Assembly: GCA_041483895.1 (NCBI GenBank)
Contig: JBGPGO010000010.1
Span: forward strand, 32,001 to 96,000
Source: Fimbriimonadia bacterium
GTDB taxonomy: Bacteria; Armatimonadota; Fimbriimonadia; Fimbriimonadales; JABRVX01
DNA length: 64,000 nt
Reading direction: 5' to 3'
Made by a program: the position numbers and the translations under genes. The notes under the pieces are model-generated. The model ran no database searches, was not told the DNA's origin, and saw only the letters and a program-made list of their open reading frames with translations. Shown here piece after piece: positions 14,246 through 41,036 of the stretch (its first letter is position 1; each line of letters starts with the position of its first letter).

Positions 14246-14330
14246 AGGAAGCGGCGGGATTCGAACCCGCGAGGCCTTTCGACCTAGACGATTTTCAGTC
14301 GCCCGCCATAAACCACTCGGCCACGCTTGG
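14246..14330 (-). tRNA. tRNA-like element or pseudo-tRNA: Ser-type class II body, anticodon reads GAA, first two acceptor pairs broken
   Basis: Minus strand CCAAGCG TG GCC-GAGTGGTTTAT-GGC G GGCGA-CTGAAAA-TCGTC T AGGTC-GAAA-GGCCT C GCGGG-TTCGAAT-CCCGC CGCTTCC T. Confidence 0.8.
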
Positions 14331-35043: not shown

Positions 35044-36774
35044 ATGGCTCGACCTAGGCGTGGGCTCTGTATCGGCTGCGGAGCGGCAGGAATTATCTTT
35101 ATCGTCGGTACTGCCTGGTTCGGCTTCAGCCGAATGAAACCTGCGGCAGCAACACAACGAACATTTGAAGCAAAAAAGGGCGACCTTGTTCTCGATGTGG
35201 TGGAATCGGGAACGATAACCGCCGTCCGGACGGTAGACGTTCGACCCCGCACCGGCGGTCGCGTTTCCCATCTCGAGGTGGATGAAGGCAACACCGTGAC
35301 ACCAGGCCAAGTCTTGGCCACCGTCGACCCGCAGGAGACCCAATTGGTGGTGAACCAATTTCAGGCCCAGCGAAAATCAGCGGAATCGCGCCTCAAAGAG
35401 GTCAAGATTCAGACGAATACCACCATCTCCACCTCCAATGCCGATATCCGGCAGGCGGAAGCCCAGCTCCGCCAAGCGCAACAGGACTGGGAAAACCAGC
35501 CAAAGATTACTGAGGCTTCCATCGCCCAATCCAAGGCCGGCTGGGAAAGCGCAAAAGAGGACATCCGGCTCCTGGAGACCTCGACAATCCCAAACAGCAT
35601 CGTCCAGGCCGACAACGCTGTCAATCAAGCAAAGGCCAGTTTGGAAGAGGCCGATGCGAATTACAAACGGATGCAGTATCTCGTCTCCAAGGGCTTCCGA
35701 GCGAAACGCGACGAAGAGGTAGGCAAAGCCCAATTTGATACCGCAAAGACTCAATACGATTCTGCGGTTCAATCACGAAAAATCCTCGATCGGCAGAATG
35801 AGAGCCAGCGTAAGGCCGCCGACCAGCGCCTTGCCCAAACGAAAGCCGCGTATGATCAGGCTGTCGCCAATTCCTATCTGGTCCAGCAGCGCAAAGACGC
35901 GCTCGAATCGGCGAAGGCGGGCCTGGCCGGGGTCCGCGCAAGACGAAATGGGATCAATCGACAGAGTGAAACCCAAGCGGCAGCAGGCATTCAGGAGATT
36001 GACAGCCGCCTGGAAGACGCCAACCGCCAGCTTAACGAAACGGAAATCAAGGCCCCGATCAATGGCATGGTCACCAAGCGATACGTCCAGATCGGCGACC
36101 TCGTTACGGCTCTATCCGGGTTCAGCTCCGGAACTCCGGTCTATCAAATCGCCGATCTGAGCCAACTGAAAATAAATTTGTCGATCAACGAGGTCGATGT
36201 ATCGCGATTGAAGGTCGGCCAGGAAGTGGAAGTGACCGTCGACGCGGTCCGTGGCGAGACGTTTCACGGAATAGTCAACAAAATCGCGCCCGCTTCGGAC
36301 TCCAGCAGCCAGGCCCAGCAGCAGGTGGCGCCGGGTACCGCCACGGTCGTGAAATTTCAGGTAGAAGTTTATCTCACCAACTCCGATCGCCGTCTCAAGC
36401 CCGGCATGAGCGCAAAGTGCCGAATCATAACCGACCGCGCCACAAACGTGCTCCTGATGGATGCCGAGGCCGTGGGCAAAGAGATGAAAGACGGCAAAGA
36501 GACCTACTTCGCCATGAAGCTGTCCGGCAAGAAGGTGAAGGACAAGAAGACAGGCCAATTGGTGGACGAGACTGAGCGAGTACCGTTGCAGGTCGGCCTC
36601 CAGGCCCCCACCCGCTATGAAATCACGGCCGGCGCGAAAGAGGGGGACAAGTTTGCCAGAGCCCCCTTCGGCGGCCCAAAACGGCGTGATCTTCGCATGG
36701 ATTTCGGCGCCAATAGCGACGACGAAGAAAAGAACAAAGACGATCAGAAGAGCAAGGACGAAAAGAAAGAGTGA
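35044..36774 (+). CDS. Efflux periplasmic adaptor subunit (MacA/HlyD-like) with long coiled coil
   Basis: SGTI.A...VDV, V.EG..V..GQVL, IKAPING.V and LKPGMSA motifs. Confidence 0.92.
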   Translation: MARPRRGLCIGCGAAGIIFIVGTAWFGFSRMKPAAATQRTFEAKKGDLVLDVVESGTITAVRTVDVRPRTGGRVSHLEVDEGNTVTPGQVLATVDPQETQLVVNQFQAQRKSAESRLKEVKIQTNTTISTSNADIRQAEAQLRQAQQDWENQPKITEASIAQSKAGWESAKEDIRLLETSTIPNSIVQADNAVNQAKASLEEADANYKRMQYLVSKGFRAKRDEEVGKAQFDTAKTQYDSAVQSRKILDRQNESQRKAADQRLAQTKAAYDQAVANSYLVQQRKDALESAKAGLAGVRARRNGINRQSETQAAAGIQEIDSRLEDANRQLNETEIKAPINGMVTKRYVQIGDLVTALSGFSSGTPVYQIADLSQLKINLSINEVDVSRLKVGQEVEVTVDAVRGETFHGIVNKIAPASDSSSQAQQQVAPGTATVVKFQVEVYLTNSDRRLKPGMSAKCRIITDRATNVLLMDAEAVGKEMKDGKETYFAMKLSGKKVKDKKTGQLVDETERVPLQVGLQAPTRYEITAGAKEGDKFARAPFGGPKRRDLRMDFGANSDDEEKNKDDQKSKDEKKE

Positions 36775-38003
36775 ACATACTCCAGTCGCTGCTCGTCGCC
36801 GTGGGGATGCTGCGGGCAAACAAAATTCGCTCGTTCCTCACCATGCTCGGCATCATCATCGGCGTCATGGCCGTCACCGTGACGATCGAGATGGTGGAAG
36901 GCTTCCGCAGCTACATGAACAACCAGTTCGCCAGCCTGGGTTCAAATACTGTTTTTGTTTTCTATGATCCGAGCGGCCGGCGGCGGGGAGAGACGTTGGG
37001 TGGAGTAGGCGGTCTCAAGCAAGAAGATGTGGAAGCGATCCGAGACGAATGCTCCCTTGTCAATCTGGTCAGTGAGGAACTTCGTCTTGGCGCAAAGACC
37101 GTCTCCTACGGGGACCTGCAGCTCGAGAGTACCGATGTCATCGGCGCCGATGGATCGTATGCCGAGATGCACGCGCTGCAGACCGACGAAGGCCGGTTTT
37201 TCACCGATACAAGCTCCGACAAATGGGCGAACAATGTTGTCCTCGGCTACGACGTTGCGCAAAAGCTTTTTCCGCGCGGCGGGGCGATTGGCAGCGACGT
37301 GATCATCGATGGCCGGGCATTGCGCGTGATCGGTACGATCAAGAAAAAGGGTCAGACGCTCGGCGAGCAGGAGGACAAACGGGTGTACGTGCCGGCCTCC
37401 ACCGCGCAAAAACGTTGGCTCGGATCGGACGACGTGCATGTTCTGTTGGCACGGCCGGTCTCAATGGCGGACACGGACGGCGCGATGGACCAAATGTGGC
37501 AGACGCTCATGCGCCGCCACGACAACAAGCAGGTGTTTCGCATCGGTTCACAAGAAGCGATGACCGCGGCGTTCGGCGGCATCATCACCGCTTTTGGGGC
37601 CGTCTTTTCCGCAATCGCAGCGCTGTCGCTTCTCGTCGGCGGAATTGGCATCATGAACATCATGCTCGTGTCCGTTACCGAGCGCACGCGAGAGATCGGT
37701 CTGCGCATGGCGGTCGGCGCGAAACGCTACGAGCTGCTCTTCCAGTTTCTCGTCGAGGCCGCCACGTTGTCGCTCATCGGCGGTCTCATCGGCATGGCTC
37801 TTGGTTGGGGATTGGGCGCGGCGGTCGATTGGTTCACTCATTCACCGATGGCGCAAGGCATGCCCGGCATCACGATGACTTTTCCGCTCTGGGCCGCGAT
37901 CGGGGCTTCGCTCTTCAGCGCATCCGTGGGCCTCGTCTTCGGCATCTATCCCGCCTGGCGCGCCGCCAAACTCGACCCCATCGAAGCCCTCCGCCACGAG
38001 TAA
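36771..38003 (+). CDS. MacB-like ABC transporter permease
   Basis: RS.LTMLGIIIG, SLLVGGIGIMNIMLVSVTERTREIGLR.AVGA and PA.RAA.LDPIEALR motifs. Confidence 0.95.
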   Translation: MNILQSLLVAVGMLRANKIRSFLTMLGIIIGVMAVTVTIEMVEGFRSYMNNQFASLGSNTVFVFYDPSGRRRGETLGGVGGLKQEDVEAIRDECSLVNLVSEELRLGAKTVSYGDLQLESTDVIGADGSYAEMHALQTDEGRFFTDTSSDKWANNVVLGYDVAQKLFPRGGAIGSDVIIDGRALRVIGTIKKKGQTLGEQEDKRVYVPASTAQKRWLGSDDVHVLLARPVSMADTDGAMDQMWQTLMRRHDNKQVFRIGSQEAMTAAFGGIITAFGAVFSAIAALSLLVGGIGIMNIMLVSVTERTREIGLRMAVGAKRYELLFQFLVEAATLSLIGGLIGMALGWGLGAAVDWFTHSPMAQGMPGITMTFPLWAAIGASLFSASVGLVFGIYPAWRAAKLDPIEALRHE

Positions 38004-38105: not shown

Positions 38106-38873
38106 TCAATCACATGCCCAATACCACGTGCCGATGTTCGGGTCCGGGTGCGTCTCCCCGCTCGCATGTCCCGACGGCGACACGAGCGTCTTATCGAATG
38201 CCCCCGCAGACGTGATGAACTTCGCGTGACCATCCGCAAAGATCATGCTCCCGCCATTCCGGTGCCATTCGCGGAAGTAGTCGTCATATCCCGCGCACTC
38301 GTATCCATAGTAGCAACCCCCCTGCGGGTCCAGCGCCTTCGAGAAAAAGGGAAACTCCTCATCTCGAATGATCCGCGTCTGTGCAGGCAGTTGATACGCG
38401 GCATCCTTCACGATCTGCGTGGTGCCGTCCGGGTACACATTGCCATTTTGGCTGCTATAGTTTGCGATTGTTGAAAACCCGCAGTGATCGAATCGATAGC
38501 TCGATCCATAAGCTTCCCAATAGTTCCTGGATTTCGGCACGTCGCCCTCTTGAAACGGACTCCCGATATCTTCCGGACAATCAAAGACACGCTTGTCCTT
38601 CGTATATGTCAGTAGTGCCATCTCAATACCCAAATGCCCCGGTTCCCATGGACTCGGCGTTTTGTTATACGCCTGGAAAATCGGCCATGTCGCGTTGTTG
38701 TCATCCACGTACATGCGGACCGCCAAGCCGACCTGCCGCGCGTTGGAAACGCACGTCGTCACCTTCGCTTGCCGTCTTGCGTTCGCGAACACGGGAAACA
38801 GAATCGCGGCCAATATCGCGATGATCGCGATCACCACCAACAGCTCAATCAGCGTAAACGCTTTTCTATGCAC
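38106..38873 (-). CDS. Prepilin-type N-terminal methylation / DUF1559 protein with H-X9-DG motif
   Basis: AFTLIELLVVIAIIAILAAILFPVFA, C.SN.RQ and HRNGGSMIFADGHAK; GGAGG RBS. Confidence 0.93.
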   Translation of the reverse strand: MHRKAFTLIELLVVIAIIAILAAILFPVFANARRQAKVTTCVSNARQVGLAVRMYVDDNNATWPIFQAYNKTPSPWEPGHLGIEMALLTYTKDKRVFDCPEDIGSPFQEGDVPKSRNYWEAYGSSYRFDHCGFSTIANYSSQNGNVYPDGTTQIVKDAAYQLPAQTRIIRDEEFPFFSKALDPQGGCYYGYECAGYDDYFREWHRNGGSMIFADGHAKFITSAGAFDKTLVSPSGHASGETHPDPNIGTWYWACD

Positions 38874-38895
38874 TTTTTCGCCCCCTCCGATTTAT

Positions 38896-38998
38896 CCCTC
38901 CACGGTCACACTGCGGAGGGTCGTCGTTCGTCATCCCTTGACAATCGCACTGTCAAGGGCCGACGGCGTCTCCCTTCACAATCCCAATTGTGAAGGGG
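38896..38998. repeat. Three tandem ~25-bp hairpin repeats (family C, CCCTTCACA...TGTGAAGGG)
   Basis: Units at 38896, 38935 and 38972; same family at 55166-55285. Confidence 0.8.
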
Positions 38999-39039
38999 CG
39001 CAAGATGACTAGGGGACGGACAAGTACGGGGGGAGAAGT

Positions 39040-39131
39040 CTCTGCGTTCCCTCCGCCGGAATTATCCGTCTCAGGTTCAAGGGGTCTATGCGCTACCGCA
39101 ATCTCAGCCCTTTCGGGCTCCCCCAGCAGAA
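39040..39131 (-). promoter_or_regulatory. TPP (thiamine pyrophosphate) riboswitch
   Basis: Minus strand GGGGAGCCC-GAAA-GGGCTGAGA...GACCCCTTGAACCTGA...GGATAATTCCGGCGGAGGGA, with P1 tctgc/gcaga. Confidence 0.92.
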
Positions 39132-39159
39132 CGCCTCAATTCTACCACATCAAATAAGA

Positions 39160-39277
39160 AGCCCTCCTCTTTTTCCGAGCCGAAGGCGAGGAAAAGCGGC
39201 GGATGATGGCAAGTTGGAAAGCCCTCCCCTTTTTCCGAGCCAAAGGCGAGGAAAAGGGGGAGGGCTGGGTGGGGGTC
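39160..39277. repeat. Tandem REP-like palindromes (family A)
   Basis: Two units of gccctcc.ctttttccgagcc.aaggcgaggaaaag.gg.gg, ending gagggctgggtggggg. Confidence 0.75.
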
Positions 39278-39692
39278 AAAGGCACTGTCGCGAACGAGGA
39301 TATCCCTCCTCCTTTCCAAGAAGCGGCCAGCGGGAGGTTGGAAACGACGGGCATCATTGGGCGACGGCGACATGGCCGCCTGGTAGGCTCTTGGAGGTAT
39401 TTGCAGGTATTTCCTTGGACCGAAGAATAGAAACCCGCTCGGCGAGAGTCTTCATTGATAAAAGCGTCCGCTGGGAATGAAGAACTCCTGGCCGAATCCG
39501 GAAATTTGCTGTATCATAGTAAGCGGACAGCCACATTGGAAGTTGTTGAAACGTGACAATGCAACTCTTCCCATCCATCGGGACATGGGAACAAGTACTC
39601 GGTAATTGGCGCGATCCGTTTCAGAGGTGTATGTTGACAATCGGGCGGATCGATCAACGTTGGTGCGCTGCGAGGAGAGAGGCGGTGCCAAA

Positions 39693-41036
39693 ATGAAGTC
39701 GCGACTGCTTTGCACGGAGATTGCAATTTGCTGTATCCAGGCATTTCAGATTCCACAATTAGCCACAGCCCAGCAATATACTCATCGCCGGATCGGCACC
39801 TACCGCGGGGTCGGGTTTGGCTATATAACTGACGACGGTGTACCGATTTACCTTGTCACCGAAGGGGATCCGAACGATCTTGGCGCACCCTATGATGTCT
39901 ATGTTGACGGCGTAAACTACACCGGCAGCGTATTCAATGGAGATCATTATTGCTATGGTCCGAAATTGCTGCGCAACGGCGACATCTACTGGACTGGAGG
40001 ACAAACTAGGATCGATGTTTACAAAAACAATGTAAACATTACCCAAACGTTGTATGGCAACGCCTATAATGTTTCAGAATACAGGGTGAATGAACGTGGC
40101 AATGTCGCGGTTCACCTCAGTCTGGATCATTCGTCCACACAGGACACATTCTTGGACGGGTTCAACATGTCGAAGGCCGCTCTTGGCAATGGCTTGCGGC
40201 AGACCCAGCTCCTCCATTTGACAGACGACGGAACTCTCTTTTGGCGCGGGACGGGGCCAAAAGATCAAGGAAATGATGACGTATTCAGGAATCTCCAGAA
40301 TACGGACGCCGATGCCTTGGGCGCCAATCGGGCTGCCTATCAATACTATGTGAATTCTAACGGACAGTACCTTTGGACCGGTTTGGGAGACAAGACAGGT
40401 GGCTGGAAGCATGTGTTCCTCGGCCAAGCAGACGTGACAAGAGCCTTGTTCGGCTCCACCGACCACAACGATTGGGCGGTAGCGCTCAGCGATACCGGCA
40501 GTGTTCTGATGGAGACCTTCGATGCCGAGTCGCGGACGCTTGGTATGTACAAGGATGGCGATCGGATCTCCGACGTGTTGGGAGTGGCCGGGGGCATTGA
40601 CATCATCGGCTACTTCGCCTCCGATGGTCGAGCGGTGTGGAGCGGAGGAGGCACTGCATTCGGGAAATTTACCGACGTGTTCGCGGATAGGGCTAATCTA
40701 TCAGCGGCACTACTCGGTGGGAACCGTCAAACTAGGCTGGACGGTGTGATCCCCAATGGAAATGTGCTTTGGCATGGATATGGCAACCTGAATCCGCATT
40801 TCGACTTATTTGTTGAACAGTTCAATCTCTCGGCCAGCGCCATAGGCGATGCGTCGCAGAGTTACTGGGCGCTAGGCGCTTCCGGCAACAAGAAGGGACA
40901 GATCATTTGGGGGGTTGCCAGGAATGGAATGGAAGAACTTTGGGTCAGCACGCCGGTGCCGGAACCGGGTGCAATTGCGGCTGCAGGGTTCGCCATCCTG
41001 GGCCTGATACTGCGGAGGCGTCAGCGGGCGAAGTAG
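39693..41036 (+). CDS. PEP-CTERM surface protein with internal repeats (paralog 2)
   Basis: Repeats W.G.G....DVF....NLS...LG; C-terminal STPVPEP + TM helix + RRRQR. Confidence 0.88.
   Translation: MKSRLLCTEIAICCIQAFQIPQLATAQQYTHRRIGTYRGVGFGYITDDGVPIYLVTEGDPNDLGAPYDVYVDGVNYTGSVFNGDHYCYGPKLLRNGDIYWTGGQTRIDVYKNNVNITQTLYGNAYNVSEYRVNERGNVAVHLSLDHSSTQDTFLDGFNMSKAALGNGLRQTQLLHLTDDGTLFWRGTGPKDQGNDDVFRNLQNTDADALGANRAAYQYYVNSNGQYLWTGLGDKTGGWKHVFLGQADVTRALFGSTDHNDWAVALSDTGSVLMETFDAESRTLGMYKDGDRISDVLGVAGGIDIIGYFASDGRAVWSGGGTAFGKFTDVFADRANLSAALLGGNRQTRLDGVIPNGNVLWHGYGNLNPHFDLFVEQFNLSASAIGDASQSYWALGASGNKKGQIIWGVARNGMEELWVSTPVPEPGAIAAAGFAILGLILRRRQRAK

Follow-up and report, generated by a model that had tools for sequence, protein, structure and literature searches.

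Why should a riboswitch for thiamine pyrophosphate (TPP) stand ahead of a gene for a pilin-like protein? The first-pass annotation of the window (the whole 64,000-nt stretch of DNA analysed here) had placed a TPP aptamer about 170 nt upstream of such a gene, on the same strand, and had suggested that the protein captures thiamine or a precursor as one of many substrate-specific subunits of a pilus-like uptake system. The question therefore has three parts: whether the pairing of switch and gene is a constant feature or an accident of this genome, what the gene accompanies in other genomes, and where in the cell envelope its product would act.

The riboswitch, its leader and the prepilin-like product

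The aptamer aligns with all 105 positions (1–105) of the Rfam model RF00059 at 64.3 bits (cut-off 54.3; E 2.6e-10), and it is the sole TPP match in a scan of the whole genome (3.95 Mb, 95% complete). This is the Rfam check that the first-pass annotation had called for, and it bears out the placement, with 157 nt between the 3′ end of the aptamer and the start of the ORF and both elements on the minus strand (Table 1). The prepilin-like ORF had also been described as the only gene downstream, which holds because the next gene is convergent, so that the transcript likely comprises a single gene. This MacB-like permease neighbour is absent from the orthologous loci examined.

Table 1. Features of the switch–pilin locus and its borders (positions in the window)
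Feature	Position	Strand	Basis or remark
TPP riboswitch aptamer	39030..39134	-	Rfam RF00059 match
Predicted anti-RBS strand	39011..39027	-	ViennaRNA folds
Two strong leader hairpins, dispersed genomic repeats	38935..38998	.	34 and 43 similar blastn hits
Shine-Dalgarno-like purine run 5′ of GTG start	38879..38888	-	Sequence, fold
255-aa prepilin-like ORF, GTG start, clade A of DUF1559/H-X9-DG-like proteins	38106..38873	-	ORF, profiles, tree
Class III signal peptide-like N-terminus	38793..38873	-	Profiles, model
H204-x9-D214-G215 motif; W203 before it invariant in clade A	38229..38264	-	Literal sequence
Convergent MacB-like ABC permease gene, outside the system	36771..38003	+	Bounds transcript
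Divergent PEP-CTERM protein gene, outside the system	39606..41036	+	ORF, family scan

When the aptamer is kept folded in ViennaRNA, the strand immediately downstream pairs with the Shine-Dalgarno sequence and the start codon, and in the fold with an open ribosome-binding site (RBS) the partners of the same strand are the aptamer's own strands. To open the RBS takes 19.6 kcal/mol when the aptamer is held and 11.3 kcal/mol when it is not, a difference in the direction of a translational OFF switch, for which sequestration of the RBS is the likely, predicted mode. The unpaired probability of the Shine-Dalgarno sequence is 0.15 both with and without the aptamer, i.e., the site is mostly paired in both equilibrium ensembles, and switching would thus have to be kinetic. 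A search of the leader for a terminator-like site found none; among the orthologue leaders, which to the eye also have strong stems near the RBS, a crude automated terminator test flagged 4 of 21. Most orthologues have a shorter leader, a difference likely due to the two hairpins formed here by dispersed repeats. Upstream of the switch (39159–39257), two near-identical 39-nt hairpin-forming repeats occur that are found nowhere else in the genome, and a tRNA-like match of modest score (41.8 bits) lies elsewhere in the window (14249–14328).

The N-terminus of the protein consists of a 5-residue basic leader, Ala at position −1, Phe at +1, Glu at +5 and a hydrophobic helix, and its N-methylation motif scores over the cut-offs of both relevant models (PF07963, 33.4 bits against 21.2; TIGR02532, 31.6 against 16.3). 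The original assignment to the DUF1559/H-X9-DG proteins stands as regards this prepilin motif and the literal H-x9-DG sequence, but the two family models fall just short, at 20.7 against 23.3 for DUF1559 (PF07596) and 18.1 against 19 for H-X9-DG-CTERM (TIGR04294). Two orthologues pass the DUF1559 cut-off (28.1 and 23.4 bits), PF07596 is found in 18% and 34% of the members of the two nearest Atlas clusters, and the His of the H-X9-DG motif is substituted in many orthologues. Those two clusters and the named homologues belong to Fimbriimonadales and other Armatimonadota. The group of close relatives, here termed clade A, is a small one: a search of 1.84 billion representatives yields 52 clusters at E 0.001. 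A pattern scan of the genome returned 49 ORFs with a prepilin motif, about 45 of them of the DUF1559/H-X9-DG-like type.

The structure model (pLDDT 86, pTM 0.81) combines a 51-residue N-terminal helix (residues 8–58) with a compact head that has little regular structure. In the VIA structure search, type IV pilins or pseudopilins aligned across the head occupy every one of ranks 1–16; the best row reaches Z 4.8 (rmsd 4.6, 143 aligned) and no row reaches Z 5 or more, so that the assignment of a pilin head fold is suggestive only. Foldseek gave no match for the model at E 0.001, a thiamine-binding fold is not among the rows listed by either search, and PDB sequence matches of the ORF are confined to the pilin N-terminal helix. 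Known families of thiamine binders and transporters (ThiB, ThiY/NMT1, ThiT, PnuT, YkoE, OMthi) gave no Pfam or NCBIfam match in the ORF at E 0.01.

The heads of 73 clade A proteins share a mean identity of 48% (lowest 28%), and 14 positions in them are 99–100% conserved (Y69, H80, G82, E84, Y90, D102, G104, Y118, S125, S140, R170, W203, G207, and D214). Thiamine is a cationic aminopyrimidine-thiazolium compound, and aromatic and acidic residues suit such a ligand; the conserved aromatic and acidic set of clade A would therefore suit thiamine. Glu+5 is present in 73 of the 73 proteins, partly by construction of the search pattern, and the N-terminal helix is nearly invariant. Position −1 is Ala in 51 of the 73, including the protein of the window, and Gly in the other 22. 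Prepilin peptidases may tolerate Ala at this position. A passage of one source has bacterial class III leaders invariably ending in Gly (PMC4471445), a rule under which processing of an Ala leader is not assured.

Distribution of the pairing and of thiamine synthesis

The pairing of switch and gene is real and conserved, as seen in three samples that overlap in part and whose related genomes are not independent. The order-level sample, whose counts and alignments include one unpublished genome (G036), consists of 41 genomes, 27 of which have a close orthologue (E below 1e-40, 49–64% identity) that is well apart from the paralogue background near 1e-25. The TPP switch is directly upstream in 27/27, at 55–171 nt from the start of the match, and the genes that flank the orthologues vary by locus. 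In the phylum sample of 151 genomes, a profile built on the head domain alone identified 60 clade A members in 57 genomes, with a switch upstream of 60/60; these searches scored only about 22–24 candidates per genome, and a switch-less member could have been missed. Among 80 loci on metagenome contigs, 74 have enough upstream DNA and the switch is present in 74/74 (67 distinct proteins), as against 0/118 control loci scanned with the same local profile. A single-protein search of named genomes yielded 22 loci, none of them clade A and none with a TPP match.

The presence of the pilin is nearly the mirror image of that of thiC. Within the order, thiC occurs in 12/41 genomes, namely in 0/27 carriers of the pilin and 12/14 non-carriers; in the 12 thiC genomes the TPP switch sits on thiC, and the remaining two genomes have neither thiC nor the pilin. 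Across the phylum, a thiC model that can over-count slightly (see below) places the gene in 3 of the 57 clade A carriers against 81 of the 94 non-carriers, and the three genomes with both genes have two switches each. Opposite states are found side by side: in genus g73, G105 differs from five thiC-positive members; in genus g69, G142 differs from five carriers; and in family f5, G018 differs from eleven carriers. The pattern thus does not reflect one inherited split. In six of the 13 phylum genomes without thiC and clade A, the TPP switch is on a pilin of a second clade, B. With clades A and B taken together, a TPP-controlled pilin is present in 60/67 thiC-negative genomes and 3/84 thiC-positive genomes. 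Judged by gene content, the clade A pilin would mark mainly thiamine auxotrophs across the phylum.

The 130 TPP switches of the phylum sample head clade A pilins (58), clade B pilins (6), other genes for synthesis or salvage (30) or membrane-anchored pilin-like ORFs (2), lie within 3 kb upstream of thiC (32), or belong to no assigned class (2). ThiB, ThiT, PnuT and TonB receptors are absent from the first genes assigned behind these 130 switches. In two genomes (G121 and G169), cobalamin switches (L205 and L211) precede second thiC-like genes, which we take to be likely benzimidazole-synthesis paralogues, and it is for this reason that the thiC model can over-count.

Partner genes and other riboswitch-controlled pilins

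The genome of the window (95% complete) has no match over cut-off for ThiC, ThiG, ThiE or ThiD, ThiE being found below cut-off only. A check for ThiBPQ, ThiT and PnuT had been proposed at first pass; ThiB, ThiT and PnuC/T, and likewise YkoE and a TonB barrel, have no match over cut-off in the genome. A weak partial NMT1 match (E 3.6e-4, 21.3 bits) has no TPP switch, and a ThiY-like binder remains a candidate. For the families tested, the same gaps are found in four near-complete relatives, except for one TonB receptor (G034). On contig C3 of the genome, a gene for thiamine pyrophosphokinase is followed by a gene for a symporter of the SSF family. This kinase needs free thiamine. With the kinase present and no means of joining the two halves of the molecule, we infer that the compound needed is most likely intact thiamine. 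The suggestion that the protein captures thiamine or a precursor thus holds in its first half, in that a role in thiamine acquisition is strongly supported by comparative genomics, but not in its second, salvage of a precursor being unlikely in a genome with this set of matches (no ThiD, ThiE only below cut-off, pyrophosphokinase present). Passages on Fimbriimonas in PMC4072686 similarly describe a thiamine kinase only, no synthesis, and 79 PulG-like genes.

The kinase and the symporter are recurrent partners of the pilin outside this order. Within the fetched flank of 1.5–2.5 kb, 43 clade A loci from outside the order include the kinase in 26, the SSF symporter in 20, and at least one of the two in 27; the usual gene order is pilin–kinase–symporter, and the spacing from pilin to kinase is in many loci of the kind seen in translational coupling. 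The kinase and/or the symporter are also present in 4/6 clade B loci. Within the order, neither gene is near the pilin (0/27 loci), and the two are adjacent to each other, away from the pilin, in 4/5 genomes checked; in the fifth, the end of the record interrupts the locus. The position of the pair in the genome of the window thus points to an operon that was split, with the switch kept by the pilin. Transporter genes of another kind accompany the pilin in three genomes: in G001 and G002 (L062; L063:5633-9400) the operon reads switch–pilin–ykoE–pilin–amidohydrolase, with the second copy 1458 nt downstream, and in one locus of G171 (L190) the pilin is followed by two YkoE-like genes.

The amidohydrolase (Amidohydro_3) of G001 and G002 may be a salvage enzyme. 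In G010 (L064:5658-7023) and G025 (L065:1431-2078), a second TPP switch precedes pilin-head-like ORFs with no Pfam match, in which N-terminal membrane helices replace the prepilin leader (likeness judged by eye). In G004, where thiC and the pilin are both absent, the gene behind the TPP switch encodes a multi-helix membrane protein of 227 aa without a Pfam match (L066:2041-2721), a candidate thiamine transporter of a new kind.

Control by a riboswitch extends to other pilins of the family. In a FastTree phylogeny of 185 proteins, the 73 of clade A and the 6 of clade B each form one branch with support 99, and the pilins found behind cobalamin switches (B12 pilins) are apart from both; deeper branches are weak, and a sister relation of clades A and B has support 28 at 20% identity. 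A TPP switch precedes 6/6 clade B pilins, all in thiC-negative genomes, and a separate profile finds clade B only there. For cobalamin, 90 of at least 150 switches in the phylum were fetched (the 30 best and 60 spread across the ranking), and a pilin is the first gene behind 58/90 (15/30 of the best, 43/60 of the spread). A BtuB-type TonB-dependent receptor is downstream in 7 of the 17 non-pilin loci of the spread set, and a BtuF-type binder directly follows the pilin in 8 B12 loci (27 of 41 candidate ORFs scanned). In B12 operons, the place ahead of an existing periplasmic binder is thus taken by either a pilin or a receptor, which argues for a role of the pilin at the surface or outer membrane.

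FMN switches are rare (2 in 151 genomes) and none is ahead of a pilin, and the regions ahead of 42 other paralogues in the genome of the window gave no riboswitch when scanned with Rfam, the only matches being sub-threshold miRNA hairpins. The survey of DUF1559-like genes for TPP, cobalamin and FMN switches that was advised at first pass is thus positive in the Armatimonadota sample for the first two ligands and negative for the third. Likewise, the idea of substrate-specific paralogues gains from the second TPP clade and the cobalamin clades, but draws nothing from FMN switches or from the 42 paralogues.

A proposed minor pilin as receptor, and its alternatives

A TPP switch in a genome that yielded no genes for thiamine synthesis, and the same pairing mainly in members of the phylum without such genes, suggest that the protein likely captures thiamine at the envelope. 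That the 255-aa pilin has a role in thiamine acquisition is very probable. Direct binding of thiamine or its phosphates by the pilin seems a good deal likelier than not, and action within a filament, at the outer-membrane step, is slightly favoured over that of a static binder in the periplasm. The best reading, which we hold with moderate confidence, is that of a thiamine-capturing minor pilin on a type IV pilus, upstream of the symporter. When TPP is low, the RBS would be freed and the pilin made, and plentiful TPP would shut translation off. After processing, the prepilin would join a type IV filament as a minor subunit and there bind intact thiamine outside the inner membrane; retraction or disassembly would then bring the thiamine-loaded pilin to the periplasm, and thiamine would be handed to the sodium:solute symporter and then to thiamine pyrophosphokinase.

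Pilus genes in the genome of the window include those for a prepilin peptidase, three secretins and PilM, and ten assembly-type ATPases are encoded, three of them PilT-family proteins over cut-off; PilB-like and PilC-like proteins are both below their cut-offs. A pilB-pilT-pilC cluster is followed by two paralogous pilins. No pilus-assembly genes are recognisable beside the orthologous loci examined. A TonB-dependent receptor of some kind is found in 30/57 clade A carrier genomes, and the pilin thus does not generally take the place of such receptors.

An unlikely but substantial alternative is that the pilin is a static periplasmic thiamine binder, anchored in the inner membrane and feeding the SSF symporter or YkoE, with no filament across the outer membrane. 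In its favour are the Ala at −1 in 51/73 clade A proteins and the linkage of the pilin gene to genes of inner-membrane transporters and not to pilus genes. DUF1559 is labelled a solute-binding family in passages of PMC2754498 and PMC4807772, and the related-looking, switch-headed ORFs of G010 and G025 (judged by eye) have membrane helices for a pilin leader. Against it, the N-terminal helix is nearly invariant together with its Glu+5, and B12 operons have a BtuF-type binder of their own behind the pilin, which occupies the position of the outer-membrane receptor.

It is improbable that the head is instead a surface salvage enzyme (e.g., a phosphatase that converts TMP or TPP to thiamine) or that the protein is a pseudopilin selecting a scavenger secreted by a T2SS. 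The invariant H80, E84, D102 and D214 could be catalytic, the requirement of the kinase for free thiamine would fit with a phosphatase, an amidohydrolase gene ends the operon in G001 and G002, and a pseudopilin cluster is possibly tied to enzyme export according to part of PMC13274419. Yet the structure searches single out no enzyme fold, the weak rows of the inositol-phosphatase family (Z 2.2–2.4) being at background, and no conserved gene for a secreted partner lies beside clade A.

The pilin-like fold of the model would also fit an adhesin that is made under thiamine shortage and attaches the cell to thiamine-producing neighbours or particles with no binding of the vitamin, and a passage of PMC4072686 suggests that pili serve for attachment in Fimbriimonas, a bacterium that lacks thiamine synthesis. 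We regard this as very improbable, given that genomes usually have a single copy of the gene and that the head is strongly conserved, unlike a variable adhesin, that separate clades track separate vitamins, and that spacing to the kinase gene resembles translational coupling in many loci. Finally, an orphan switch left by rearrangement, for which orthologues lacking the riboswitch had been named as the telltale, might be imagined to have come before one of about 45 such pilin genes by chance, the neighbouring genes differing between genomes, but this is ruled out to near certainty by the 27/27, 60/60 and 74/74 pairings that persist as the neighbours change.

With the minor pilin as the preferred reading, the pilin is the new component of an otherwise familiar arrangement, a TPP riboswitch of the usual kind ahead of an operon that works as other thiamine uptake operons do. 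In Neisseria, the minor pilin ComP binds DNA, and its head serves as the receptor in uptake. ComP (PDB 5hz7; VIA rank 5, Z 3.6) offers the likeness of a minor pilin head, but its ligand is DNA, not a small vitamin, and the sequence relation is limited to the pilin helix. The OMthi-pnuT-tnr3 operon of Bacteroidetes, as described in passages of PMC5613172, likewise combines a TPP switch, an envelope protein, an inner-membrane transporter and thiamine pyrophosphokinase, and in Bacteroides it can be split while the switch is kept. Here, by contrast, the first gene encodes a pilin-like protein and not a TonB-dependent barrel, the transporter is an SSF symporter and not PnuT, and the order is pilin–kinase–symporter. 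ThiV of SAR11, in the part of PMC11452348 that concerns it, is an SSF-family symporter under a TPP switch and tied to thiamine metabolism; the likeness is one of family, since ThiV imports HMP and has no pilin, whereas gene content here points to intact thiamine.

The Sulfolobus bindosome is alike in its class III signal peptides and, on the preferred reading, in the capture of solutes, type IV filament-like assembly and an associated transporter; PMC3047682 and PMC4471445 present it as made of archaeal sugar binders of ABC transporters. The present protein is bacterial, its whole model is pilin-like, and it is under a vitamin riboswitch in a cell with an outer-membrane secretin. The proteins of DUF1559/SBP_bac_10 (PF07596) with H-X9-DG-CTERM (TIGR04294) share the prepilin N-terminus, the H-x9-DG motif and dozens of paralogues per genome, and clade A differs from DUF1559 at large in its specific regulatory and genomic link to thiamine. 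Passages of PMC2754498, PMC4807772 and PMC10632474 give DUF1559 a predicted solute-binding label and name no ligand, and part of the last reports 68 DUF1559-like pilins in P. limnophila, two of them essential. Searches of the open-licence text of PubMed Central and bioRxiv found no report of the pairing of switch and pilin; subscription journals, RegPrecise and supplements could list it.

Few paralogue families in Planctomycetes are larger than the DUF1559-like pilins, which are expanded to a similar degree here, and the locus names a candidate ligand for one of them. It also fills a gap, that of genomes which need thiamine and have no known thiamine receptor. More tentatively, and in our estimate somewhat short of an even chance, the DUF1559/H-X9-DG pilins may be interchangeable, ligand-specific receptors on a type IV filament that retracts and so brings small nutrients across the outer membrane, as an alternative to TonB-dependent receptors, with two clades for thiamine, others for cobalamin, and the rest for other nutrients. 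If the filament model is true, it would provide an outer-membrane route for vitamin uptake with no TonB-dependent receptors, and it would bear on the interpretation of vitamin cross-feeding from genomes of soil, sludge and hot springs.

Some further pilin genes and neighbours were recorded. A paralogue in the genome of the window (L317:222-980, contig C18) falls inside the B12 pilin group, with support 100 for its grouping with two second-position genes; it has only 221 nt of upstream DNA on its contig, and the genome has no cobalamin switch at E 1e-8. The same genome holds two tandem arrays of paralogous pilin genes, one of eight (C14:53667-62100), in which one pilin is truncated at about 100 aa, and one of four (C9:11500-15350). 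In five B12 operons (L233, L238, L289, L278, and L281), secreted-looking proteins of 300–490 aa with no Pfam match are encoded after or near the pilin.
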